A DNA stretch of 64,000 nucleotides from a bacterium (GCA_030697645.1 JAUYPI010000003.1:318-64317); one strand, 5' to 3'; counted from the first letter of the stretch, positions 11,116 to 38,718 are shown. The notes: a model not told the origin generated them from the sequence alone. Made by a program: numbers and translations.

Positions 11116-12885
11116 TTATTTTTTAATTTTTTCAAGACCTTTTTTAAGATATGCTTCCATCCTCTTAACATTTTCCTGGAGTTGCTTCAGCGCATAGGCG
11201 TCATCAGCGCTCGTCGGAGTCTCGGACGCTTTGGATAGCCGCTCGACATCGTCCATAATCAATGTGAATATTTTTGTGACCTCGGATTCGACGAGCAACA
11301 CTCGTAAAGAAATTTTCTCCTGCCGTCTTTTATAAAACCAAATTCCTCCGCCAAACCCTGCTATGAGAATAAAGAGAAGAAGCACCGCCGCGCCGCCTTT
11401 CCCGAGCTCTAAGAACCCGATCTGAATAATCGGTTTACTCTTCACTTTGATCGGCGCTGAATCCACAATCAAACTCAACGCGCCTCGCGCATCTTTGCTT
11501 TGGGCTGTTGCGGTATAGCTCCCATTTTTGAATGCTTGGTCAATAGTAAACTCCCAATTCCCTTTCTCGTCGGTGCGTGCCGTCCCCTCTGCGACGAGCG
11601 CCTCTTTTCTATACACCCGAAGAAGGACGTTAATCGCCGGCAGGGCAGTCCCTTTTACGGTCAACCCTTTTTCTTCATCGGAAAACAACTCCTTGGTAAC
11701 AAAGGTAATGGTTGGAGACGCAATAGGAATCGTTTGGAGCGTCACGCTATCCTCAATGCCATTGTCCGCCTCGTCAACCGCTCGTACACTGATGTGCCGC
11801 GTACCGGGAGTTTGTAATGGCAAGGTAAAACTGCCGTCAAATTCTGCTGCGGGGATTTTCAGTACAGCTCCATCCCCTACTCGTATCTGATATTCTTTAA
11901 GACCGGATAGGGCGTCGCTCGTTCTAAATTGAAGTGTGGGAGCCGGGTTGTCGGTTGCCTCACCTTCAACAATGGAGAGCTCAAATCCAAGCGGGGGCTC
12001 GGTATCAATGGCTAAACGGTGATGTGCTGTCGGCCCCCAGCCGACATCGTTTCGAAAACGGATATGCAGATACCACACGCCATCCGAGAGTGAAGCAAAC
12101 GTTTTATTATCAAACAGACCTTCGGATCGTTCGGGCGGGATAGAGTTTGGATATTTATTGAGCGCCGTGCTCACGCCGGAGATATCAAGCGGCACATCCC
12201 ATCGTACCGTAAACTGCGCCACCAGATTATACCAGCGGTTCTCTTCGGGGTAGAGCGGAATTTTGAGCGTGGGCTTCAGGGGCAATTTCCCCGAAGGCAC
12301 GGGTTTCCGGACAATTTGTTCGGGCTCCGGAATTTTTTGTTGCACCGCCGGAGCCTCGGGAGGCTTTCGCTCTGCCTCCGGCGTCTTCGGGGTAACCCTC
12401 TCGGGAATGACCGCAATCGCCGCATCATGCACCTTTGATAAAATATTGGTTCCACTCCCGTCTGATGCGGTAATTGCGGCATCGCTCGCTGAGAGAGTGC
12501 CGGCGCCGCTCCCTTTGGCGGTGAATATAACTCTCAAAATCTGAATGGAGCTGCCGGAAGCGCCGTACGGCGTTCCGCCAACAAATGAAATGGCCCCGTC
12601 GGTATTAGAAAAGTTTGGCTCCTCAAGCCAAAAGCTGAATATCGAACCGGTTTTATCCACAGAAACGACTTCAAGAATATCTTTCGGAAAACGAAGGACT
12701 GCTTGCGCGGCATTGAGACTCACCCCCTCGCTGTCAGTTTTAAGATCGACGGTGAGTTTTTCTCCCATGCCAACTTCGGAACTCGGCGGCGCGATAAAAA
12801 GAGTTGCCGCTTCTGCAACGAAAGCACGCGACAAGGCGCCAAGCCCCCATGCCACGAGTACAATAAGTAAAATTTTAGTTTTCAT
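11116..12885 (-). CDS. cell-surface protein: signal peptide, N-terminal cohesin-like domain, Ig-like middle, C-terminal TM anchor
   Basis: Signal peptide. LRFPKDILEVVSV...GAISFVGG resembles a cohesin beta-sandwich. C-terminal hydrophobic helix plus KRRQEK stop-transfer. Confidence 0.5.
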   Translation of the reverse strand: MKTKILLIVLVAWGLGALSRAFVAEAATLFIAPPSSEVGMGEKLTVDLKTDSEGVSLNAAQAVLRFPKDILEVVSVDKTGSIFSFWLEEPNFSNTDGAISFVGGTPYGASGSSIQILRVIFTAKGSGAGTLSASDAAITASDGSGTNILSKVHDAAIAVIPERVTPKTPEAERKPPEAPAVQQKIPEPEQIVRKPVPSGKLPLKPTLKIPLYPEENRWYNLVAQFTVRWDVPLDISGVSTALNKYPNSIPPERSEGLFDNKTFASLSDGVWYLHIRFRNDVGWGPTAHHRLAIDTEPPLGFELSIVEGEATDNPAPTLQFRTSDALSGLKEYQIRVGDGAVLKIPAAEFDGSFTLPLQTPGTRHISVRAVDEADNGIEDSVTLQTIPIASPTITFVTKELFSDEEKGLTVKGTALPAINVLLRVYRKEALVAEGTARTDEKGNWEFTIDQAFKNGSYTATAQSKDARGALSLIVDSAPIKVKSKPIIQIGFLELGKGGAAVLLLFILIAGFGGGIWFYKRRQEKISLRVLLVESEVTKIFTLIMDDVERLSKASETPTSADDAYALKQLQENVKRMEAYLKKGLEKIKK

Positions 12886-12912
12886 GTTATGACTACACGT
12901 AACTCCTCACAC

Positions 12913-13003
12913 TCGTCATTGCGAGCGGAGCGAAGCAATCCAGAGTATAAGTCTATAGTCCCCCTGGATTGCTTCGTCGCTCCGCTCCTCGCAATGACGA
13001 AAT
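12913..13003. repeat. long hairpin element (36-bp stem GTCATTGCGAGCGGAGCGAAGCAATCCAG / CTGGATTGCTTCGTCGCTCCGCTCCTCGCAATGAC)
   Basis: A second copy at 14747-14867 brackets the dockerin gene. Confidence 0.7.
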
Positions 13004-13026
13004 TTGCCAAAGTTTAGTAAATACCT

Positions 13027-14706
13027 TCATCGTTTTCGTATATTTCGAACGAAAATACTAAAATCGGAAATATCAATGGCGCCGTCTTCATTCAAATCAA
13101 TTAATCGGCGAGACCCCGCGTCTTTTGAGGCCCATCGAGACAGAAAAATACTCCAGTCCTTAATATCAACCCGACCGTCGCCGGAGAAATCCGTTTTGGG
13201 AACGGCAAGGCGCGACACGACTAAGTTTTTTGTTGGTGAAAAATCGCTTTCTTTCTCCTCTTCTTTCTCCCCCCGAGAGAGCAGTTGCTTCACCCGTACC
13301 CGATGCGAGCCAAATTCAAGCATGCTGGTCGGGGCCGCTACCGTATAGGAACCGTCGTCTGCTACTCTGACTTCTTTTTTAATTGTACCATCCATTTCAA
13401 CGACGACACTGCTTCGCGGCGACGCGAATCCGGTAATAGTTGCCTCATCCCCTCGCGTCACCACGGAACGGACGAAAGCAACGGTCGGTGGAACAACGAT
13501 GTCTTTTTCCACCAAATCGTCGGCCAGCGTATTCACATTAAAAAACTTCGTTTGCGTCGTCCGGCCTTCTTTGTCTTTAATCAGAAGGCCGAAGCTATGC
13601 TGACTTTTTAAGACTCCCACAAAACTCGTATTAAAAGAACCGTCATCGTTTGTAATTACGTCTTGACTCACGATTGTCTCGCGGTGGCTATCCTTATCAA
13701 CAACGAACACCTGTGCACCCGGGAAGGCCTTCCCGGAAAAACTTATCGTTGTAGGCGTCACTCCCCCGGATATCGGCTGAGAAGGGGGTGGCTGAATTGT
13801 TAAAGTCGGACATGCTTCATAGGCATCAAGAGTAGCAGCGTCGTTGGTAACACGAAAGCTATAGGTTCGGCCGAGTGGGACATCGTCTGCGGCTTTCAAT
13901 GACCATTCGTATTCCGTGGATTGGCCCTTGAGCATGCTCTGGGCTGACGCTGGATTTGTTGACTCAAGAATCTTTCCAGCGACAAAATTGAGGCCGCCTA
14001 CCAGCTGTTGCGTAGTCGGAGCACTATCATCAAAATTCGTAGACGCCATGAGATTAAAACTGGCGCTTGCGGGAGTAATAATTGCCCAACTGCCTGTAGT
14101 ACAATCGATTCCTTCTTTAAATTCTACACGAGGCGAGATAGTACCATCAGCGGTGCCGAGTTTGATGGCAAAACGAAGACGAAACGGCGTCCCCTGGGGT
14201 ACATTTGTAATGTTCGTATTCTGGCTTACATTTTCAGCCCCATAACCAGTGTCGGTGATTTCAGATCCGTCATCATCTCGAAACCAAAATTTCTGTTGAT
14301 TCCACGATGGTGTTCCACCACCGCCGCCACCACCACTACCTGTTGAAAAGATTGTGGTTTGTGTAGAACTCACATCGAGCCCAGTTGTTTCTGTATCGGA
14401 GAGCGAAAGTGTTACGGTTTCGGCCACGAGATCATTGATTTGTCGCGTGCCAACCCCATTCACGATATCCACCACACCTCCACCGGTTGCCGAACCGCCC
14501 GCAACAAGCGTGACGTCGCTCTGGTATCCGGTATCTACCTGATTATTCTGTTTTCGCGCTTCAACGGTGACCGTAACCGGCACGCCCGCGGTACTATCAT
14601 CGGGATTAACAATAAAAAATTTTACTGCTACGCTCGGAGGAGCGGCTACTGCCGCGACCGGTAGTAAACAGAAAAGCAACAAAAATGGTACAAAAGGCAA
14701 TCGCAT
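13027..14706 (-). CDS. secreted protein with C-terminal type I dockerin domain
   Basis: Signal peptide. C-terminal duplicated Ca-binding segments DFSGDGRVDIKDWSIF and DLNEDGAIDISDFSIF. Gly/Thr-rich linkers. Confidence 0.65.
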   Translation of the reverse strand: MRLPFVPFLLLFCLLPVAAVAAPPSVAVKFFIVNPDDSTAGVPVTVTVEARKQNNQVDTGYQSDVTLVAGGSATGGGVVDIVNGVGTRQINDLVAETVTLSLSDTETTGLDVSSTQTTIFSTGSGGGGGGGTPSWNQQKFWFRDDDGSEITDTGYGAENVSQNTNITNVPQGTPFRLRFAIKLGTADGTISPRVEFKEGIDCTTGSWAIITPASASFNLMASTNFDDSAPTTQQLVGGLNFVAGKILESTNPASAQSMLKGQSTEYEWSLKAADDVPLGRTYSFRVTNDAATLDAYEACPTLTIQPPPSQPISGGVTPTTISFSGKAFPGAQVFVVDKDSHRETIVSQDVITNDDGSFNTSFVGVLKSQHSFGLLIKDKEGRTTQTKFFNVNTLADDLVEKDIVVPPTVAFVRSVVTRGDEATITGFASPRSSVVVEMDGTIKKEVRVADDGSYTVAAPTSMLEFGSHRVRVKQLLSRGEKEEEKESDFSPTKNLVVSRLAVPKTDFSGDGRVDIKDWSIFLSRWASKDAGSRRLIDLNEDGAIDISDFSIFVRNIRKR

Positions 14707-14746
14707 AGTGGGGCTAACTTTGGATCACACGCAAAAGCACTGGTAT

Positions 14747-14867
14747 TCCGTCATTGCGAGCGGAGCGAAGCAATCCAGAATATCATCTGTGGCAAGACTT
14801 GTCTGAAGAGGTTTAATCCTGGATTGCTTCGTCACTCCGCTCCGCTGCGTTCCTCGCAAAGACGAAC
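14747..14867. repeat. long hairpin element, second copy of the GTCATTGCGAGCGGAGCGAAGCAATCCAG inverted pair
   Basis: Seen directly. Confidence 0.7.
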
Positions 14868-14902
14868 GTGAGTCAGAACCATGCTTTTGCGTATGATCCG
14901 TA

Positions 14903-15304
14903 CTAACTCTTGACCGGCGGAGTTTTTACCGCTTTTTTCCCCTCCAGATACGCTTTGGTTTTTTCAATCACCTCCTCAATCGGGTGCTGGGATTTTACAA
15001 AATAATCATCCGCGCCGAGCGCGAGCGCCCGTTTGATTTGTGTGTCATCGCCAAGATTGGAAAGCACGATAATCGGAATCAGCTTCCAGTCCGGATTTTT
15101 CTTCACTTCTTCCAACACATAAAAGCCGTCCTTTTTGGGCATCAAGAGATCGAGCAGAATGATATTCGGCTTCATCTTTTTTATATGCTCCACCGCTTCT
15201 TCTCCGTCTGCCGCCGTATCCACACTACAGCCCTCGGATTCGAGATTATCCTTCAGCGCCCGCATCAAAAACTCTTCATCTTCAACGATTAATACTTTGC
15301 TCAT
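14903..15304 (-). CDS. response regulator, receiver domain only (CheY-like)
   Basis: DD...D...T...K receiver pattern. 133 aa. Confidence 0.85.
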   Translation of the reverse strand: MSKVLIVEDEEFLMRALKDNLESEGCSVDTAADGEEAVEHIKKMKPNIILLDLLMPKKDGFYVLEEVKKNPDWKLIPIIVLSNLGDDTQIKRALALGADDYFVKSQHPIEEVIEKTKAYLEGKKAVKTPPVKS

Positions 15305-15308
15305 ACGT

Positions 15309-16850
15309 TTAGGTTGTAGATTTTAGCTTCGGAACGCGTAAATAAAATATCGACCCTTTGCCGGGCTCCGATTCAAGGAGAATTTTCGCCCCGATTTTCT
15401 CCGCGAGCATTGAGGCGACATATAGGCCCAACCCAGTGCCATCGGGCTTGAATTTTTTGGCATTGGACGCGCGGTAAAATTTTTCAAAGATGCGCCCCTG
15501 CTCGTCGTTGGGTATCCCGATGCCGCTGTCTTTCACGGAAAATACCACACTCCCTGTTTCTTCGGTGACGTCAAAAAATATATCCTGCCCCCGCTCGGAA
15601 TAATTGATTGCGTTTACGATAAACGTCTCAAGAATGGAGCGCAGCATCTCCGCGTCAGTCTCGACAACGGTCGTGGCGAGATTTTTCACGTCCGCGTGAA
15701 GCCGCACCCCTCTCTGCTCGGCGACAGGCGCCGTCGCGAGAGAAACGTCTCGAGCGAGGCGCGCAAGGGAAATCGCTTCTGTTTTCATCGCGACGTCGCC
15801 GCCCTCGATACGTAAGGCGTTCAGCATGTCAAAGACGATTTTGAGCGCGCGCTCGTTCAATTGGTAGATTTGATCAAGATATTCTTGCTGTTTTTGATTT
15901 ACAGTACCGAGTATCTTTCGATCGAGCGTTTCAACGAACCACTTGATGCCGGAGAGCGGCGTTCGCAGTTGGTGCGAGGCAAGAGCAAGAAATTCAGTTT
16001 TCATGCGATCAATTTCCTTTTCTTTGGTAATATCGCGAAATACTTCAACGGCGCCTATAATTTTTCCGTCTAAAGTGACGGGGGTGACAATACCCGACGC
16101 AGGAAACCTGGTTTTATCTTTGCGAATATAATACCAACTACTACTACTACTACTAGTAGTAGTAGTTCCCACCAATGCCTGCGTTATTGCTCTTTCTTGA
16201 GGCGGCACCAAATTCCCGGCTTCATCTTCTTGTGGCACTACTTCAACCATTCGTTTCCCCGCGATTTCCTTTTCACCCCAGCCGGTGAGCGCTTCAAAAG
16301 CTTTACTGATGAAAAGAATATTTCCTTCCTTATCGACTGCCACAAGTCCCTCGCCGATGCCTGACAAAATTGCCTCATCTTTGGCTTTGGTATTATCCAG
16401 CGCTTCTTTTTCAACTTGAAGGTCTTCGAAGACGTTTTTGGCGGCCGTCCTTGCATTTTCCAAATCCTCCTCTATCTGCTTTCGGTCAGTGATATTTTGC
16501 AACACTGCCACAAAAAATCCTTTTTGGGGACTATACGCCGAAACCAAAAACCACATCGATAACGGTTTAACGTATATTTCGAACCTCTTTGATTTTCCAG
16601 TTAAATAAAGCCGGCCGTAAATCTCAAACAATTCAGGATTAGACGCGCGAATTCCCGGAATTATCTCTGATATTTTCTTTCCTGTAACATTTTTCAATCC
16701 CGTCAGATTTTCATAATTTTTATTAACCCTTAAATGGATCCAATCTATCAGGTTTCCTTGCATATCAAAAATCATTTGGCAGTAAGCCAAACCGTCAAGC
16801 ATATTATCAAAAAGCGACTCATAAAAGACGCTGGGATCTTCGGGTTTCAT
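15309..16850 (-). CDS. PAS-domain sensor histidine kinase
   Basis: HisKA H-box (ASHQLRTPL) and HATPase G-boxes (GTGLGLYV). Lower GC. Contains the (CTA)5(GTA)4 triplet palindrome at 16136-16165. Confidence 0.85.
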   Translation of the reverse strand: MKPEDPSVFYESLFDNMLDGLAYCQMIFDMQGNLIDWIHLRVNKNYENLTGLKNVTGKKISEIIPGIRASNPELFEIYGRLYLTGKSKRFEIYVKPLSMWFLVSAYSPQKGFFVAVLQNITDRKQIEEDLENARTAAKNVFEDLQVEKEALDNTKAKDEAILSGIGEGLVAVDKEGNILFISKAFEALTGWGEKEIAGKRMVEVVPQEDEAGNLVPPQERAITQALVGTTTTSSSSSSWYYIRKDKTRFPASGIVTPVTLDGKIIGAVEVFRDITKEKEIDRMKTEFLALASHQLRTPLSGIKWFVETLDRKILGTVNQKQQEYLDQIYQLNERALKIVFDMLNALRIEGGDVAMKTEAISLARLARDVSLATAPVAEQRGVRLHADVKNLATTVVETDAEMLRSILETFIVNAINYSERGQDIFFDVTEETGSVVFSVKDSGIGIPNDEQGRIFEKFYRASNAKKFKPDGTGLGLYVASMLAEKIGAKILLESEPGKGSIFYLRVPKLKSTT

Positions 16851-21939: not shown

Positions 21940-22329
21940 AGGCATTATCATACAAAGATCGCCCGTACGCCGCAACGGATCGGATCGGCTTTGCGTACCA
22001 TGCTCGCGCGGCGATCCTATTACACAGTACTACACGGTAATGACGCCGTGAGGGCCTTTTTGTGTTGCATTTGCAATAACACTGCGATCGCTTTGTTATT
22101 GCAAATGTACGATTACGATAAAGATTACGGTTCAACAACTGGATTGCTTCCCGCCATGCTTTGCTCTGCACTGTCTGATGTAGGGCTTCGCTCGCGGCTT
22201 CGGCCAAATCGCTCGCAATGCATTAAATGACGGGCGTGAGTGATTACCGTGTGCCGTTTGAAGTTTGACAAGACGCCTTTCTTTGCTAGGATGAATGTTG
22301 AGCTCGTCCACGGGCGGGCTTGTTTTAGT

Positions 22330-30520: not shown

Positions 30521-31014
30521 GATTTTACGTATGAGTAGATTGACTAAACTACACAAAAAGCGGAGGAGCTGACACTCGTCTTTGGTAGACTGTGTTCGTC
30601 CCATCCGCTCAAGGTGAGCGGTTTTTGTTTTGTCCGAACGATTGGACGATTGATTCTTTGTCAACAAAATAGGCCCCACGGCAAGAACGCATGGAGCGTT
30701 TTTAATTTCGATATTTTGAAATTTTGATATATCGAGGTGCCGGTGGCGGGCTAAAGCAAAAAGAATCAAATTAAGCAGGTAAAACCGTGCTTCGCACGGA
30801 CATTTCGAAATATCGATATATCGAAATTTCCGCGCGGAGCGCGGTAGCGGTTTTTCCGTTCCTCACAGGAATGGAAGCGCATATGGTGGATGCCTAGACT
30901 CCACATGGCGATGAAGGACGCGGCCTGGCGGCGATACGCTTCGGGGAGGTGCCTGGTAACCTTTGATCCGAAGATTTCCGAATGGGGAAACCCCTTTGCA
31001 TAAAACGCATTGAT

Positions 31015-31391
31015 CTGCCTGTATGTTTTGACTTTTGATTTTTGACAAAAAACCGACTGTCTGACACCTGACGTCAGAGCAGTCGGCCGCTTCGAACTCG
31101 CCCTCGATCCTTAACTTACATAGAGGATGAGGGAGAATGCGAGTAGTAAAAGCAATGCTGCGAGCATATACCAATATTTGTTGTTTTTATTGAGCTCGCG
31201 ATTTGCAGCCCCCAGCGCTTGCGCGGGCACTTCCTGCTCTTCCGTTCTGAGTAAGGAATGGGGATGCCTGTTATTGTGCATGGCATTGCTCCTAATCTAA
31301 GGTAAGAACTTTAAACTCACCCCGTGAGCTTACGTCACGAATATTTTATACTATAAGTATATTTTTGTCAAGAGTCAAAACATACAGGCAG
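31015..31391 (+). other. IVS-like insertion 1 in 23S (helix-9 region), AT-rich
   Basis: 18-bp terminal inverted repeats CTGCCTGTATGTTTTGAC / GTCAAAACATACAGGCAG. Shares internal TTGTCAAGAGTC with insertion 2. Carries ~57-codon ORFs on both strands; the antisense one ends in a hydrophobic helix. Confidence 0.6.
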
Positions 31392-31812
31392 AGGCATACC
31401 CAGGGAAGTGAAACATCTCAGTACCTGGAGGAAAAGAAAACAACCGTGCTTCGCACGGACATTTCGAAATATCGATATATCGAAATTTCCGCGCGGAGCG
31501 CGGCCATTCCCTTAGTAGCGGCGAGCGAAACGGGAGGAGCCTAAACCGTGCGCAGCACGGACATATCGATATTTCGAAATTTCGATATTTCCGCGCTGCG
31601 CGCGGTGTTGTACGGCAACGGCGTAGTTTAACTAGAGAAGTTACAAAGTGGTTTGTTAGCGGAATCTGCTGGAAAGCAGAGCCCCAGCGGGTAATAGCCC
31701 CGTACGCGAAAGCACGCCACCTTCTTTGCTGTTGTTCGTGAGTACCTCGGGACATGAATAGCCCGAGGGAATCTGGCAGGACTAACTGCCAAGGCTACAT
31801 ACGTGTGGAGAT

Positions 31813-31849
<37 letters not shown>

Positions 31850-32109
31850 CAGCCCGGTGAGGGCGGTGAAATAGACCTGAAACCATATGCGTACAAGGAG
31901 TCGGAGCTGCCGCACCTCATTGCATTCGGTGCGGACATTTCGATATTTCGAAATATCGATATATCGAAATGTCCACCGCGCCGAGTGTAGCGAGGTGCGG
32001 CGGTCACGGCGTGCCTATTGAAGAATGAGCCAACGAGTTGTCGTTTGTTGCCCGTCTAACCGCTTGTCGCGGGAAGGCATAGGGAAACCGAGTGTTAAAA
32101 GCGCGATCG

Positions 32110-32503
32110 CCTGCTCATATTTTTGGATTTTTATTAGTGGAAGTTAACTGAAACCGCCACGTTCATGTTAAACGTAGCGGTTTATCCCTGAGTCCAAGGA
32201 AGAGCGTCTTCCTCACCTTGTGAGGAAGAACCAGATTTTATCTGGAATGAGCTTTTGAAGGAAAGAGCCTGGAACAAGGAAATAAGCAAGTGCAATACAG
32301 ATCAAAAGCGGCCAATATATCCACCTTGGGACGAAATACCCGAGAAGATAGAAAACACCAGCAACGATACCAATAATGATATGACCTTTAAGGTTCATTT
32401 TCGTCTCCAATCTCGAATGAGGTGCCAGGGGGATGGGGGGTTCTCTATACAACAAATTAGTATAAATGTATTAATTTGTCAAGAGTCCAAAAATATGAGC
32501 AGG
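32110..32503 (+). other. IVS-like insertion 2 in 23S (helix-45 region, ~E. coli 1170), AT-rich
   Basis: Terminal inverted repeats CCTGCTCATATTTTTGGA / TCCAAAAATATGAGCAGG. Internal TTGTCAAGAGTC. Antisense ORF 32213..32455 encodes a small protein with two TM helices. Confidence 0.6.
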
Positions 32504-33784
32504 TACAGCAGCAAACGCCAGACCCGAAGCCGGGTGAGCTTGCCATGGGCAGGGTGAAGGCGATGGAAACATCGCTGGAGGCCCGAACCGGTCAGCCGTG
32601 CAAAACTGTCGGATGACCTGTGGCAAGGAGTGAAAAGCTAATCGAACTCGGTAATAGCTGGTTCTCTCCGAAATAGCTTTAGGGCTAGCGTTCTGTGTTC
32701 CTTCCGGGGGTAGAGCACTGGATGGAAAGAATAGGGAGCAATCTCGTCTTTCCAATCAAACTCCGAATACCGGAAGCACGCCGCACCTCATTGCATTCGG
32801 TGCGGACATATCGATATTTCGAAATTTCGATATGTCCGCCGCGCCGAGTGTAGCGAGGTGCGGCGGATAGCAGGGCAGTTAGACTATGGGGGCTAAGCTC
32901 CATTGGTCAAAAAGGGAAGAGCCTTTGATCTCCAGTTAAGGTCCCTAATACGGCGCTCAGTGCATCTTAAGGAAGTAGAGACCCACAGACAGTGAGGAGG
33001 TTGGCTTAGAAGCAGCCATCCTTTAAAGAAAGCGTAACAGCTCACTCATCGAGGGTTTCTGCGCCGCAGATTCACGGGGCTTAAGCGCCGAACCGAAACT
33101 GAGGATGCCGTGCGCAGCACGGACATATCGATATTTCGAAATTTCGATATTTCCGCGCTGCGCGCGGTGTGGTAGGAGAGCATCCTGCACCCGCAATGAA
33201 GCACGGGCGTGAGCTCCGTGTGGAGCGTGCAGGAGTGAGAATGTTGGCACAAGTAACCGCAATGCGGGTGAAAGCCCCGCACGCCGAAAGCCCAAGGTTT
33301 CCTTGGCGATGACAATCAGCCAAGGGTTAGTCGGGCCTTAGCCGATGGCGAAAGCCGGAGGTGATGGACACACGGTTAATATTCCGTGACCCGGATCCAT
33401 TTCGATGTGGTGACGGAGGAGATAAGCGGGGGCGCATTATTGGATTTGCGTCGCCCGTGCGAAGACGCGCCGCCTAGGTAAATCCGGACGGCACGCCGCC
33501 GCACCTCATTGCATTCGGTGCGGACATTTCGATATGTCGATATTTCGAAATGTCCGCCGCACCGAGTGTAGCGAGGTGCGGCGGTACCGTCGAGCGCGGT
33601 AGAAATTCCGGGGTTCGCCCCGGGAAATCCTCGCGAAGAGCCTTCCAAGAAAAACCACTAAGGCTAGGTGGATTCGGTCCGTACCGCAAACCGACACAGG
33701 TGGGCAGGTCGAGAAGACCAAGGCGAACGGGTGAGTGTTCCCCAAGGAACTCGGCAAAAAAGCAGCCGTAACTTCGGGATAAGG

Positions 33785-34330
33785 CTTGCCTTGTCGGGGC
33801 TGAAAGAAGGAAAATTTTGTTCTTTAAGGAGACGATCAATGGATAGCATAGGTGGGAGGCTGAATTATTGGAGCGGCGAAAAATCCAATAGAAATACCAG
33901 CCGTCAGTGGAATACCACCCTTGATCGTTTTCGTCCGGAAATTCGCTTAAAAACCGAGTTTCCGGTTGAGTTCAGTGGAGCAAATCGGGCGTTTAGTCGA
34001 GTGCTTCCATGCCGTGTAAAATAGCGCTTGTCTGATTTGCTCCGCCAGTCCAATGGAGCGGTCAGGCCGGAGAGTTCTCCTGCAATACGTGGGTGACCCA
34101 TGAGAGGTTGCTACGTTCCCTTGCAAGGTTCTGTAAAAATCTCCCGCCCTGCCGAGTGGTTGAAGTCCACGCCGCTCCAACCCGACCAATGGGGTAGATC
34201 ATGGATACTTTCTGGGATATTGGGAGTGATAACCTCCGAACCCAATTTCCGGAGTAGCAAGTATGCATGGTCTACTCCTTCAATCAATCGGGGGATGTCT
34301 CTGATATCCCCTCCTTCTTTCAGCTCCGAT
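33785..34330 (+). other. ~545-bp insertion in 23S domain IV (between CTTGTCGGGGCTGAAAGAAGG and CCTTCTTTCAGCTCC) containing a divergent copy of a domain-V segment
   Basis: GGATAGCATAGGTGGGAGGCT...GCCGTCAGTGGAATACCACCCTT duplicates the canonical block at 34990-35060. Confidence 0.45.
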
Positions 34331-34589
34331 GAGGCCGCAGCGAAAGTACCCCTGCCGACTGTTTACCAAAAACACAGCTCCCTGCGAACTCGCAAGAGAA
34401 TGTATAGGGGGTGATGCCTGACCAATGCCGGAAGGTCAAACAGTGGTGGTGACCGCATCACACGGCGTGTGATGCGGACATATCGATATTTCGAAATTTC
34501 GATATGTCCGCATCGCGCTTCGCGCGATGCGGTTGCTGGCCGCTGTAAGCCCCGGTGAATGTCGGCCATAACTATAATGGTCCTAAGGT

Positions 34590-34818
34590 CACGGCTCTCT
34601 TGATTTTTCAAGGGAGTCGTGAGGACTGGGACTATTATAGCGGTAAACAGAAAGTGCAAGCTACCTTATCGTGCGGTAACGCACGAATTAGTCCGCACCA
34701 CGACTCACATGAGAGGCCATACGTCGTGCTCCGACACCACTTTTTGGTTTCAGTCTTAGCTGAAACCAAAAAGTGGTGTCGGGTGAAGATATGGTCCTTC
34801 GCAAGAAGGAAAGCGAAG
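34590..34818 (+). other. compact ORF-less group I intron at the L1917 site
   Basis: 5' exon ends in U (CCTAAGGT). Intron ends in G. Exon ligation restores GGT|AGCGAAATTCC. P7-3' strand like GAAGATATGGTCC followed by a P9 hairpin. Confidence 0.6.
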
Positions 34819-35478
34819 AGCGAAATTCCTTGTCCTCTAATTAGGGACGCGCACGAATGGCATAACGAGTGGGGGACTGTCTCGGGGAACAGCCCGGTGA
34901 AAATACAATCCCGGTGAAGATGCCGGGTACCTGCAGCTAGACGAAAAGACCCTAGAAGCTTTACTATAACTTGATATTGGTCGTATGTTTCCACTGCGTA
35001 GCATAGGTGGGAGGCTTTGAAGCTCTGCTCTCGGGCAGCGTGGAGCCGTCAGTGAAATACCACTCTGTGGGAGTGTACGCTCTAACCTCGACGGCAAAAA
35101 CGGCGAGGGACAGTATCTGGTGGGTAGTTTTGTTGGGGCGACATCCTGAAAGTTCTGCGAAAGGAGGCCTTTCGCAGCGTCGTCCCGGATCGTCATTTAT
35201 TCCTGACGGTTCGAAGCCGTGCGTGGCACAGAATTTCCAATTTCCAATAACCAATTTCCAATAAAATGTCCAATGTTTCAATTTCCAATGTTCAAACGTT
35301 CATGTTTGAGATTTTGAATTTGAGATTTGGAATTTGTTTGGAAATTTAACACTTGGAGCTTGGAGCTTCCGCGCCGCGCGCGGCGAAGGGGATCCCGTAT
35401 GGCAACATGCGGGCAAACATCTTGCTATTTGCTGGAACAGCCGGCGTATCTGGCACTACCATGAGAGGAGGATGATAC

Positions 35479-35667
35479 ATGTATTATCTTTTACAGATCC
35501 AAACGAATGAGGAAATTATGTTCACCGAAAAAGATGATCACCGTGCGCTTCGAGAAGCGCGCAAGTATCTTTGGGAGCATGGAATAACGAAAGAGGACGG
35601 ATCAAAAGTTAAGCACGAAGTCACCGTTACCCTTTCAGGGTTACTGCGACGGATCAAAACATGGTGA
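35479..35667 (+). CDS. intron-encoded hypothetical protein (62 aa), no endonuclease motif
   Basis: Strong RBS GAGAGGAGGA 8 nt before the ATG. Low GC. Confidence 0.45.
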   Translation: MYYLLQIQTNEEIMFTEKDDHRALREARKYLWEHGITKEDGSKVKHEVTVTLSGLLRRIKTW

Positions 35668-35713
35668 AAATGTGACCAGTGCGGCCAACCAGCAGGGAAG
35701 GAGAAAATTACCA

Positions 35714-35950
35714 ATGAGTGCAGCAACACCAGTGGATGATCTTGGTGAAACAAAGACAAAGATAAATATTGTAAAGGAGTTAGACGATATTTTACACGAT
35801 TACAAGTCTGAACGCTTCAAGTTAGATACGGTGGCGTATCATGTATCAGTGCCTGCAGGAGAAACAGAGAAAGAAAGAGAACGATTAGCTAAGCAGACGC
35901 TGAAAAAATGTCTTTGGCTGGTAGTTAATTATCTCACCCTCAACGACTAA
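35714..35950 (+). CDS. intron-encoded hypothetical protein (79 aa; ORF track gives 35672)
   Basis: RBS GGGAAGGAG 9 nt before ATG 35714. Directly follows the previous ORF. No known homing-endonuclease family motif. Confidence 0.45.
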   Translation: MSAATPVDDLGETKTKINIVKELDDILHDYKSERFKLDTVAYHVSVPAGETEKERERLAKQTLKKCLWLVVNYLTLND

Positions 35951-36342
35951 ACGCAGGATTCCTTACCGACGGGCGATTTCGCTCGTCGGTAAGGAAAAGA
36001 TATAGTCTGATCTCCATGGCGACATGGAGAGGCACGCAGAAATGACGTGCCCGCGCCGTGCTTCGCACGGAAATTTAAATATTTAAACATTTAAACTTCC
36101 GCGCGGAGCGCGGCGGGCAACAACAATGCCTAAAAAGTAACGGAGGAGTCTATTAAGGTCGGCTAGGCGCGAATGGAAACCGTGCCGATAGTGTAAGGGC
36201 ACAAGCCGGCTTCACTGCGAGGCGTACATGCCAAGCAGATGCGAAAGCAGAGCCTAGTGAACCGACGGTTCGCTTTAGAAGCGGCCGAAGATTAACGGAT
36301 AAAAGCTACTCTAGGGATAACAGGCTGGTACCGCCCAAGAGT

Positions 36343-37205
36343 CAATGAGGCTCCCTCTGGCGGCAACGTCAGAGTAAACTGTGACTCAAATCGGTGAAAT
36401 CCAGCGTTCGCAATTTGCAATTTCTAATTCCCAATTTCGAATTAGTAGTTGATAATTCGTAATTGCGTCAGCTGGACAATACCGAGGGTAAGAGAACTTG
36501 AAATTTGTTATATGGAAACAAAACGCGCACAACGCGCTCGTGTGCTACCTCTCGACCAGAGGCAGCGTGAGATCGTTATCGGATCTCTCCTAGGAGACGG
36601 ACATTTGGCACGGACAACGCGAGGATATGCGTTCCGGGTCAATCACGGGATAGGACAGCGTGAGTATGTTAATTGGAAGTATCAGGAGCTCGAGTCGTTT
36701 ACGAACTCGAGGCCGAATACATGTGATCGATCGTACTATTTTCGCACCGTATCTCACCCGTACTTCGACGAGTTGCGTCGTGTGTTCTATGTTGGCAATC
36801 GAAAAATAATTCCAGAAATGCTTGAGGGCTGGTTGACGCCACTCGTGTTCGCCGTGTGGTTTATGGACGACGGCACGCGAGACGGAAAACAAGTTCGACT
36901 GAATACGCAATGCTTCAGAAGAGAAGAGCACGAACTGCTCGTGTTTCTTTTACAAGCTAAACTCGGGATAACGGCGACAATCAATCGAGATAAAGCCCAG
37001 TACCGTTTGCGCGTGTGCGAGAAAAGCATGCCGCGCTTTCGAGCACTGGTGTCCCCGTTGATTATTCCGAGCATGCGCTACAAGTTCTCCCCGTAACGAC
37101 TTCCGCATTTCACTGCGGGGACTGCGGGCTTAAAAAGCCGCAGTAAAACGTCACCGTCCCGAAAGGGACGAAGGTATAGTCTACCTCATGAGTAATCATG
37201 AAGTG
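36343..37205 (+). other. group I intron at L2449 (863 nt) encoding a LAGLIDADG endonuclease
   Basis: 5' exon ends U (CAAGAGT). Intron ends G. Ligated exons give CAAGAGT|CCATATCGCCGGCGG. GAAGGTATAGTC P7-3' at ~37172. Confidence 0.8.
36512..37096 (+). CDS. LAGLIDADG homing endonuclease (two-motif, single-chain)
   Basis: Motifs LLGDGHL and WFMDDGT. Start METKRAQRA; ORF track gives 36449. Confidence 0.85.
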   Translation: METKRAQRARVLPLDQRQREIVIGSLLGDGHLARTTRGYAFRVNHGIGQREYVNWKYQELESFTNSRPNTCDRSYYFRTVSHPYFDELRRVFYVGNRKIIPEMLEGWLTPLVFAVWFMDDGTRDGKQVRLNTQCFRREEHELLVFLLQAKLGITATINRDKAQYRLRVCEKSMPRFRALVSPLIIPSMRYKFSP

Positions 37206-37264
37206 CCATATCGCCGGCGGTGTTCGGCACCTCGATGTCGGCTCACCTCATCCCGGGGCTGGAG

Positions 37265-37550
37265 AAAACAGACCTTCTCTCCTTCGCGGAAACGCGAGGG
37301 TAATAAACGAGCTCAAAACGGTGAAGGCCTTGAGTTAAAGGTTAACGCCGTAGGAAGCCCACTAGTAATTAGTTCCTAGTAACTGGTAATTAGTGTGGCC
37401 CTCTAACGACTGAATCCCGCAAAATGCGGGATGAGATAGAACCATCGCCACGGGTTCTATAATACGGCTCGCACCTACGGTCCGTCTCAGAGGCGGACTA
37501 CGGTGAAGGCATAGTCTGATATCCGTAGTAATACGGGCAAACACAAACTG
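37265..37550 (+). other. small ORF-less group I intron near L2500 (boundaries ±5)
   Basis: Follows exon GGGGCTGGAG. Exon resumes AGGTCCCAAGGGTATAGCTG. GAAGGCATAGTCTG P7-3' plus P9 hairpin near the 3' end. Confidence 0.55.
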
Positions 37551-37606
37551 AGGTCCCAAGGGTATAGCTGTTCGCTATTTAAAGAGGTACGCGAGCTGGG
37601 TTCAGA

Positions 37607-37949
37607 CCGTCCAGGACGTGAATTATGAATGAAGAATCATGAGTCATGGATTGGACAGTCTGAACCCGCATCGAAACTTTTCGTCTATGAAAAATGAAAA
37701 AGGCCTAAACGCACTATACAGTGCGTCGGCCAAGGAACCCCACTATCGCTAAAGCTATGGTGGGCGAGACCAATCATATCACGGCGGTCGCCCGCAGTAA
37801 TGCGGGACGAAGAAGCTGACTATATCGGTGGAACCCTGTTTTACACAGGACAACACCGAGGGAAGTCCGCGTGACCCCGTAGAGACTACATGTCAGCCCT
37901 CCGATTTTATCGGAGAAAGGTATAGTCCAATGCACACAGTAATGTGTGG
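37607..37949 (+). other. small ORF-less group I intron near L2593 (boundaries ±5)
   Basis: Follows exon GCGAGCTGGGTTCAGA. Exon resumes (A)AACATGCGTGAGACAGGTTGGTC. GAAAGGTATAGTCC P7-3' near the 3' end. Confidence 0.55.
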
Positions 37950-38098
37950 AAACATGCGTGAGACAGGTTGGTCTCCTATCTGCTGCAGGCGTTGATTCTT
38001 GAGGGGAGTCGTTCCTAGTACGAGAGGACCGGAATGAACGAACCTCTGGTCTATCGGCTGTCCCGCCAGGGGCACCGCCGAGTAGCTATGTTCGGAAT

Positions 38099-38131
<33 letters not shown>

Positions 38132-38375
38132 AATCCCAAGATGAGGAATCGCGTCGCCGCATCACACGGAGTGTGATGCGGACATATCGATATTTCGATA
38201 TATCGAAATTTCCGCATCGCGCTTCGCGCGATGCGGCGGCATCGGCCCGTGGGAGATGACCACGTTGATAGGCACCAGGTGTACGCGCAGTAATGCGTTT
38301 AGCCGAGGTGTACTAATCCGCCGAAATTCCTGTGAGGAATAGAGGAACCGCGTCGTACCTCGCTCGGGCTCGGTG

Positions 38376-38599: not shown

Positions 38600-38718
38600 G
38601 CCGCGTGCTGGTGATTTATCGCCGGGGCCACACCTGTTCTCATTCCGAACACAGAAGTTAAGCCCGGCTGAGGCGATGGTACTCGAAAGGGGAGAGTAGC
38701 TCGTCGCCAGCACGCGGC
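38600..38718 (+). rRNA. rrf: 5S ribosomal RNA
   Basis: Helix 1 GCCGCGTGCTGG / CCAGCACGCGGC. Loop C CCGAACACAGAAGTTAAGC. GAGAGTAG motif. Confidence 0.8.

Follow-up and report, generated by a model that had tools for sequence, protein, structure and literature searches.

A predicted cohesin-dockerin operon and two CGTC-headed palindromic repeats in an uncultured candidate-phyla bacterium

The cellulosomes of Clostridia and Ruminococcus combine a multi-cohesin scaffoldin with dockerin-bearing enzymes, whereas the non-cellulosomal pairs, reportedly surveyed by Peer et al. in 2009, have a single cohesin and a single dockerin and no glycoside hydrolase domains. The cohesin fold is a nine-stranded flattened beta-sandwich (jelly-roll) of about 140 amino acids, and a type I dockerin consists of two tandem segments of about 22 residues with a calcium-binding loop (D-x-[DNS]-x-[DN]-G-x-[IV]-[DN]-x-x-D) and a helix. 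The stretch of DNA analysed here, called the window, comprises 64,000 nucleotides (64 kb; GCA_030697645.1 JAUYPI010000003.1:318-64317) with a GC content of 53%. It comes from an uncultured bacterium of candidate-phyla type and includes two adjoining genes on the minus strand, gene A for a predicted cohesin protein with a membrane anchor and gene B for a predicted secreted protein with a dockerin. Two long hairpins, H1 and H2, flank gene B. It is quite likely that the locus combines a cohesin-dockerin surface operon with palindromic repeats that are independent of it and were inserted.

Two described groups of short palindromic repeats resemble the hairpins. REPINs, hairpin-forming doublets of repetitive extragenic palindromic (REP) elements, are said to be mobilised by REP-associated tyrosine transposases (RAYTs) of the HUH/Y1 type, a view attributed to Bertels and Rainey in 2011. 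REPINs and the hairpins of the window have in common two inverted short repeats, a long imperfect hairpin, a dispersed intergenic location and the lack of a target-site duplication.

The second group is the 'CGTC-tagged' REPs of Di Nocera, De Gregorio and Rocco (2013, BMC Genomics 14:522, PMC3733652), which are described as having an unpaired CGTC head, a stem that starts with AT and a CCA tail. They are mostly inverted dimers with variable spacers that can be folded into one large stem-loop, and they sit between unidirectional or convergent open reading frames (ORFs), near 3' ends (PMC3733652). They occur in five phyla, mainly in Alphaproteobacteria (Bradyrhizobium, sphingomonads, Micavibrio and N. 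aromaticivorans), and no dedicated transposase is known for them. Their near-identity across five phyla and the missing mobilising enzyme were already raised there.

The cohesin-dockerin operon

A sensor kinase, a response regulator, gene B and gene A form an operon that is conserved in Paceibacteria/Parcubacteria. Comparison with seven related contigs shows that gene B is directly followed by gene A in all of them, with a spacing of -4 to +2 nt: stop and start overlap by 4 nt (ATGA) in five, the genes abut in one (L128) and they are 2 nt apart in one (L125). The response regulator ends 3-35 nt ahead of gene B in six of the seven, and a PAS/HisKA or HATPase_c kinase, or a 3' fragment of it, is found upstream of the regulator in four (L123, L124, L129 and L130). 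Kinase and regulator are located downstream of the gene B/gene A pair in L125. Gene B and gene A adjoin in all seven relatives, which means that a dockerin protein and a cohesin protein with a membrane anchor are a conserved pair. The closest relative (L127) has a 23S_rRNA_IVP / bAvd-like gene (101-463) just upstream of the response regulator, in the position of the sensor kinase.

The genes and domains of the window that belong to this operon are the following, where Ig stands for immunoglobulin.

11116..12885, minus strand: gene A, 589 amino acids, NCBI name 'Ig-like domain-containing protein'
12376..12813, minus strand: predicted cohesin domain of gene A (residues 25-170), from the AlphaFold2 model and Foldseek
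11473..11673, minus strand: bacterial Ig-like domain of gene A (residues 405-471; Big_13/Big_6), from Pfam
11329..11421, minus strand: transmembrane helix of gene A (residues 489-519), followed by KRRQEK; Kyte-Doolittle score 2.33
13027..14706, minus strand: gene B, 559 amino acids, secreted Ig-chain protein with a C-terminal dockerin
13042..13194, minus strand: dockerin module of gene B (residues 505-555), DFSGDGRVDIKD and DLNEDGAIDISD with a helix after each
14903..15304, minus strand: single-domain response regulator, encoded ahead of gene B in the conserved operon, from ORF calling and synteny
15309..16850, minus strand: PAS / HisKA / HATPase_c sensor kinase, with which the conserved operon begins, from ORF calling and synteny

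Gene A codes for a type I membrane protein. Its signal peptide and cohesin domain are followed by a proline-rich linker and beta-sandwich/Ig domains, then by a single transmembrane helix, and the chain ends in a helical tail of about 65 residues in the cytoplasm. The AlphaFold2 model of residues 25-170, for which the orthologues of the domain were included in the input, has 11 strands, a predicted local distance difference test (pLDDT) of 91.2 and a predicted template modelling score (pTM) of 0.82. In a Foldseek comparison with the PDB, ranks 1-40 or so were occupied by cohesins only, with template modelling (TM) scores of 0.6-0.78, and the top match was 2xdh, a non-cellulosomal cohesin of Archaeoglobus fulgidus (E-value 5e-8, TM scores 0.71/0.75). 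Profile searches gave weak matches to the R. flavefaciens cohesins 5aoz and 5m2o. Orthologues of gene A number in the hundreds; they are full-length, 49-71% identical and found in Parcubacteria/Paceibacterota (Azambacteria, Niyogibacteria), and several of them bear the NCBI name 'cohesin domain-containing protein'. Pfam Cohesin (PF00963) is matched by 15 of 46 sampled orthologues (best E-value 4.9e-8). On the strength of the model, the N-terminal domain of gene A can confidently be assigned the cohesin fold.

Gene B has a signal peptide, about five Ig/FN3-like beta-sandwich domains and the C-terminal dockerin. The dockerin contains two F-hand motifs, DFSGDGRVDIKD at residues 506-517 and DLNEDGAIDISD at residues 537-548, and the calcium-ligand residues D506, D510, D517, D537 and D548 are invariant in an alignment of gene B with 29 orthologues. 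The Pfam model Dockerin_1 (PF00404) matches gene B of the window with an E-value of 8e-4 and 26 of the 29 orthologues with an E-value of 0.01 or lower (best 1.3e-7), and a profile of the gene B family gives weak matches to solved dockerins in the PDB (E-values 0.002-0.1). In the structural model a chain of beta-sandwiches is followed by three short helices (residues 515-525, 530-534 and 546-557), and these predicted C-terminal helices are consistent with a dockerin. The C-terminus of gene B has the two segments of calcium-binding loop and helix by which a type I dockerin is defined.

These results agree with much of what an earlier, sequence-only reading of the window (the first-pass annotation) had claimed. 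Both of its ORFs, gene A and gene B, are present on the minus strand, and the duplicated calcium-binding dockerin at the end of gene B is confirmed by the motifs, the invariant ligands and the profile matches. The signal peptide and C-terminal membrane anchor that it gave to gene A are represented by an N-terminal signal-like segment and the transmembrane helix. It had also proposed a cohesin-like beta-sandwich at the N-terminus of gene A and would have given this up if modelling produced no cohesin fold, and a cohesin fold is what the model has. Its description of the genes as a minimal cell-surface scaffold and cargo pair is supported by the conserved adjacency, the folds and the anchor, with the modification that the cargo is non-catalytic and that binding of the partners is deduced. 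A fold search with the full-length model of gene B returned generic multi-Ig surface proteins only and no enzyme, and for that reason no specific cargo function can be assigned.

The locus shares the cohesin fold, the calcium-binding dockerin repeats and the surface-anchored cohesin partner with cellulosomes. However, there is one cohesin, the cargo is an Ig chain without an enzyme, no carbohydrate-binding module is present, and no second dockerin motif was found in any other ORF of the 64-kb window, which is why a cellulosome was rejected. Non-cellulosomal pairs share with the locus the composition outlined above and the duplicated F-hand dockerin, and it is one of their cohesins (2xdh) that the domain of gene A matches best in structure. 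The locus differs from them in that the two genes adjoin, mostly with overlapping stop and start, behind a two-component system in six of the seven relatives, and in that the anchor is a C-terminal transmembrane helix with a cytoplasmic tail instead of surface-layer homology (SLH) domains or a sortase signal. A search of one literature library gave no paper linking cohesins or dockerins to Patescibacteria or Parcubacteria.

These features suggest how the two proteins might work together. Gene A would reside in the membrane with its cohesin held off the cell by the Ig-like spacers, and the cohesin would capture gene B through a calcium-dependent cohesin-dockerin contact. The outcome might be a non-catalytic, non-cellulosomal surface structure of adhesin or S-layer (surface-layer) type.

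The hairpins at the two junctions of gene B

The hairpin motif is absent from all seven orthologous loci. The gene order of the window is the same as in the relatives, and the intergenic gaps around gene B are 196 nt and 141 nt; these gaps are regarded as lineage-specific insertions because the corresponding junctions in the relatives are tight and free of hairpins. The following elements are found in and around the inserts, together with one possible further copy.

12914..12999, plus strand: hairpin H1, inverted pair of CGTC-headed units, CGTC...GACG element, pairing 12913-13000
14749..14864, plus strand: hairpin H2, same family and orientation as H1, 40-nt spacer
14722-14739 / 14882-14899, no strand assigned: outer 18-bp inverted repeat around H2, sequence GGATCACACGCAAAAGCA
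14714..14721 / 14903-14911, no strand assigned: junction duplication at H2, CTAACTTT repeated as CTAACTCTT, bracketing the whole H2 insert
13012..13030, no strand assigned: decayed duplicate of the gene A start, minus-strand ATGAAggtatttACTAAAC against the true start ATGAAAACTAAA at 12871-12885
22140..22232, minus strand: possible decayed third copy, partnerless short arm, covariance-model E-value 0.066

In the window, the sequence of each ancestral junction can still be made out, and it occurs in duplicate, once on either side of the insert. At H1, the start of gene A (ATGAA..ACTAAA) is found on both sides, where the upstream, decayed copy provides the TGA stop of gene B and the downstream copy provides the ATG of gene A. 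At H2, the minus strand reads ...AAGAGTTAG TAC, then outer repeat, H2 and outer repeat, then AAAGTTAG CCCCACT ATG, and the relative L124 reads GTTAA TACCACT ATG at the same point. This comparison indicates that about 8 nt of the junction between the regulator stop and gene B were duplicated around a 181-nt insert. Both insertions thus have duplicated junction sequence, although the repeat family in general lacks target duplications.

The first-pass annotation described the hairpins as near-identical, with a 36-bp stem, on either side of the dockerin gene. Two related hairpins do flank gene B: on the minus strand, H1 lies 23 nt past the stop of gene B and 27 nt ahead of the start of gene A, and H2 lies 35 nt past the stop of the response regulator and 40 nt ahead of the start of gene B. 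However, the stem of H1 comprises about 33-35 bp with two conserved bulges, and the copies are less alike than described. H1 has the short arm CGTCATTGCGAGCGGAGCGAAGCAATCCAG, a 20-nt spacer and a long arm ending in ...CTCGCAATGACG. The left arm of H2 is that of H1 over 35 nt save one mismatch, and the right arm is degraded by two substitutions and a 10-nt insertion, so H2 is an imperfect copy of H1. H1 folds at -59 kcal/mol as RNA (z -8.5) and at -36 kcal/mol as DNA (z -11), and H2 with its outer repeat, which the first-pass annotation does not mention, forms a composite stem-loop of 178 nt (14722..14899) at -88 kcal/mol.

The copy count of the hairpin in the source genome covers the 64-kb window. 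The 29-mer GTCATTGCGAGCGGAGCGAAGCAATCCAG occurs there exactly twice, against 0 occurrences expected from shuffles, and a covariance-model scan of the entire window with filters off gave two strong copies (H1 and H2) and one decayed arm. The covariance model (R1) is a sensitive detector only and is not structural evidence; its RNAalifold structure leans towards pairs within the arms, an effect of the poor alignment of the right arms. The decayed copy at 22140-22232 contains three insertions and reads CGTCATT[..]GCGAGCG[..]CGAAGC[..]GAAGCAATCCAG. A weak match at 15728-15799 is inside the kinase gene, looks like chance and was rejected. Rfam gave no match at its gathering thresholds, and chance-level matches only at E-values up to 10 (mir-26, E-value 0.077).

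According to the reading preferred here, the hairpins, each an inverted pair of 30-36-nt units with a CGTC head that resembles a REP dimer or REPIN, would have been inserted, in this lineage only, into two tight junctions on either side of gene B, as selfish or neutral insertions outside the cohesin-dockerin system. As transcribed intercistronic hairpins, H1 and H2 probably break an ancestral translational coupling. Two Logan contigs (L121 and L122; 1,790 and 1,789 nt) from the same organism in two sequencing runs contain gene B only and end inside the hairpin arms, and a break of short-read assemblies inside the arms is what would be expected of a repeat.

A repeat family in many phyla

The repeat is abundant in genomes and metagenomes. 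The exact 29-mer of the window is found in at least 120 metagenome contigs with a GC content from 41 to 72%. The arm in the window has a 5-nt box (CGGAG), and a variant longer by one base (6N), GTCATTGCGAG-N6-CGAAGCAATC, is present at at least 120 genome loci; with its 21 fixed bases, about 0.3 chance matches would be expected in 596 Gb according to our own arithmetic. The matches listed for this variant include Bradyrhizobium, Sphingomonas, Methylobacterium, Legionella, Micavibrio, Bacteroidales, Chitinophaga, Chloroflexota, Dehalococcoidia, Planctomycetota, Melainabacteria, Microcoleus, Sporomusa and Deferribacter, and also candidate-phyla genomes (Parcubacteria, Roizmanbacteria and Absconditabacteria). 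The variant is also present on megaplasmids. Novosphingobium resinovorum pSA1 has the repeat in at least 40 places, and one arm there is that of the window over 30 nt. In most copies a spacer of varying length (10-60 nt) separates the arm from its partner, CTGGATTGCTTCG(TC)GCTnnGCTC(CT)CGCAATGACG, and the two bulges of the hairpin recur across phyla. Over about 65 nt the repeat is almost invariant between Parcubacteria and soil Alphaproteobacteria, and it is shared by Bacteroidota, Chloroflexota, Cyanobacteria and other groups.

The hairpins have nothing specific to do with dockerins, and the dockerin-specific reading is refuted by the abundance of the family in many phyla and by the absence of the hairpins from the same operon in the seven relatives. 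The first-pass annotation had itself named a generic and abundant hairpin as the finding that would speak against a link to dockerins, and such a hairpin is what the searches revealed.

The variant is also present on 19 viral contigs (L251-L269, IMG/VR), and two Helicobacter canis prophage records (BK070053.1 and BK070055.1) have a 29-nt match to the arm. The viral copies could be vehicles between hosts, or the prophage calls may simply include host DNA. An arrangement other than the common inverted dimer is seen in a Microcoleus sp. metagenome-assembled genome (MAG), which has the short arm alone in at least five head-to-tail repeats with a 36-nt period, GTCATTGCGAGCGACAGCGAAGCAATCGCAGTTATT (L040, 1192-1362). 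In the proteobacterial MAG MFD10064.bin.1.32 (L014, L073 and L069), the hairpin is a perfect palindrome inside a second, genome-specific inverted repeat (GGCGTCAGTTTAAGGA...), an arrangement that suggests nested repeat families.

The arms of the window, CGTC-ATTGC...GCAAT-CCAG, share the head, the AT start of the stem and the CCA tail with the CGTC-tagged REPs described in the survey (PMC3733652). The inverted-dimer form and the context near gene 3' ends are the same, with 22 convergent, 30 unidirectional and one divergent gene pair among 53 scorable members of the family, and Micavibrio, Bradyrhizobium and N. aromaticivorans are hosts in common. The dimers of the window differ in having their tails facing, a form that is rare according to the survey (PMC3733652), and the five phyla given there include no candidate-phyla bacteria. 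No sequence matching the arm was found in the supplements of that paper. A literature search on REP elements in candidate-phyla bacteria gave nothing relevant, and a full-text search with the arm sequences gave unrelated primers only.

In contrast to REPINs, the sequences of which are lineage-specific and inherited with the RAYT, the repeat is near-identical across phyla. A tblastn search of the 64 kb with the N-termini of three RAYTs from the supplement of PMC3733652 gave no RAYT-like ORF (E-value > 0.29), and the repeat has no recurrent association with any gene. A classical miniature inverted-repeat transposable element (MITE), derived from a DDE transposon, was rejected for the family because 212 elements have no fixed target-site duplication at the CGTC ends (offsets 0-3) and the junction duplications are locus-specific. 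It is a rather doubtful proposition that the repeat was spread or homogenised across phyla by a novel mechanism, either a broad trans-acting enzyme or a host replication or repair pathway. If this were true, the filled and empty sites with duplicated junctions would be a rare readable record of insertion.

The hairpins might instead have been selected as regulatory RNA of the operon, as terminators, attenuators or mRNA-stability elements through which the dockerin protein is kept in proportion to its neighbours. Such a role would suit H1 and H2, which are transcribed, intercistronic, very stable as RNA and part of a unidirectional operon, as well as the position of family members just 3' of genes and the known stabilisation of upstream mRNA by REP-type hairpins, which is discussed in the survey (PMC3733652). 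However, the hairpins are absent from the same operon in the seven relatives, where the genes overlap or nearly abut, and the same sequence stands beside unrelated genes in unrelated genomes. The family has no orientation bias relative to transcription (18 versus 12). The suggestion in the first-pass annotation that the hairpins are terminators fails because neither copy is followed by a U-tract or called by a terminator scan; intrinsic (Rho-independent) termination was also rejected for the family, in which a T-run (at least six T in the next 10 nt) follows only 6 of 234 members. Selection for operon regulation is thus improbable. A side-effect on RNA stability or attenuation is possible, and H1 and H2 may serve as 3'-end barriers or partial attenuators.

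The outer repeat raises the question of whether H2, and perhaps H1, is the cargo of a larger MITE, with the 18-bp repeat as its terminal repeat and the 8-nt duplication as its target-site duplication, in which case the CGTC hairpin itself did not insert at this locus. The 18-bp inverted repeat does enclose H2, and the direct repeat CTAACTTT / CTAACTCTT brackets the entire 181-nt insert. About 10% of the family members, against 1.8% of controls, are surrounded by an outer inverted repeat of 8 nt or more, and the nesting of H2 is therefore a recurrent minority feature. However, no other copy of the outer repeat was found in the 64 kb, H1 has no outer inverted repeat, and the family has neither target-site duplications nor an excess of direct repeats in the 45 nt on its flanks. 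By estimate, chance alone would produce a match of 6-8 nt close to the ends with a probability of a few percent. An origin as MITE cargo is very improbable.

It is scarcely credible that the hairpins are recombination sites bounding a mobile dockerin cassette (integron attC-like or a composite element), the boundary suggested in the first-pass annotation, for although two like-oriented imperfect palindromes with extrahelical bases surround one gene and a short direct duplication flanks each insert, gene B occupies the same slot between the regulator and the cohesin gene in the seven hairpin-free relatives, the duplications flank each hairpin separately and not gene B, the ends are CGTC/GACG and not attC core sites, no integrase or transposase is seen nearby, and the ten arm pairs 0.3-4 kb apart at other loci have no recurrent enclosed ORF or shared protein; an integron attC site or gene cassette was rejected.

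Several points count against the combination of a cohesin-dockerin operon with independent insertions. The Pfam checks proposed in the first-pass annotation gave a divided result: the orthologues match as described above, but gene A of the window matches Big_13 and Big_6 only, with no Cohesin match at an E-value of 1 or lower, and the Dockerin_1 score of gene B, 20.0 bits, does not reach the gathering cut-off of 22.9. The binding of gene B by gene A is deduced from predicted folds, motifs and conserved adjacency. As for the repeat, it would be a relative of the CGTC-tagged REPs, of which there are four published families (CGTC-1 to CGTC-4), by design features and not by consensus sequence. The published units (PMC3733652) have an 8-9-bp stem and a 4-5-nt loop, whereas the arm in the window has a 5-bp stem and does not fold alone. 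Lastly, the two intact hairpins of the window are like-oriented and lie on either side of one gene, an arrangement estimated to arise by chance in about 5-10% of cases with 2-3 copies. A local functional or mechanistic link retains some probability for this reason.

Within each arm, a self-stem of 5 bp (ATTGC/GCAAT) encloses 12-18 nt, and the folding energies of the arms taken singly are -2.7 and -3.1 kcal/mol (z 0.15 and 0.40). The intra-arm pair covaries in the family, with ATTGC/GCAAT in 142 copies, ATCGC/GCGAT in five and mixed pairs in none, which fits a short intra-arm stem or two sublineages.

Genomic setting and biological meaning

The 23S rRNA gene of the window (30862-38336) is 7.5 kb long compared with a model of 2,987 positions and has about 4.5 kb of insertions, among them a group I intron (35306-36029) and an ORF for a LAGLIDADG_2 homing endonuclease (36449-37096, E-value 9e-43). 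Such an insertion-laden 23S rRNA gene is typical of candidate-phyla bacteria. A 5S gene (38607-38712) follows the 23S gene, and no 16S gene is present in the window.

With this locus the CGTC repeat family would reach into the candidate-phyla bacteria, and the two junctions allow filled sites to be compared with empty ones. The repeat needs to be masked or identified as such before any gene-specific regulatory role is read into it, and it also breaks short-read assemblies.

The protein pair appears to be a clean, conserved non-cellulosomal cohesin-dockerin module in Paceibacteria/Parcubacteria. Their genomes are very small and their way of life requires contact with other cells; a surface structure that is regulated and assembles itself would for this reason be a reasonable candidate for attachment.

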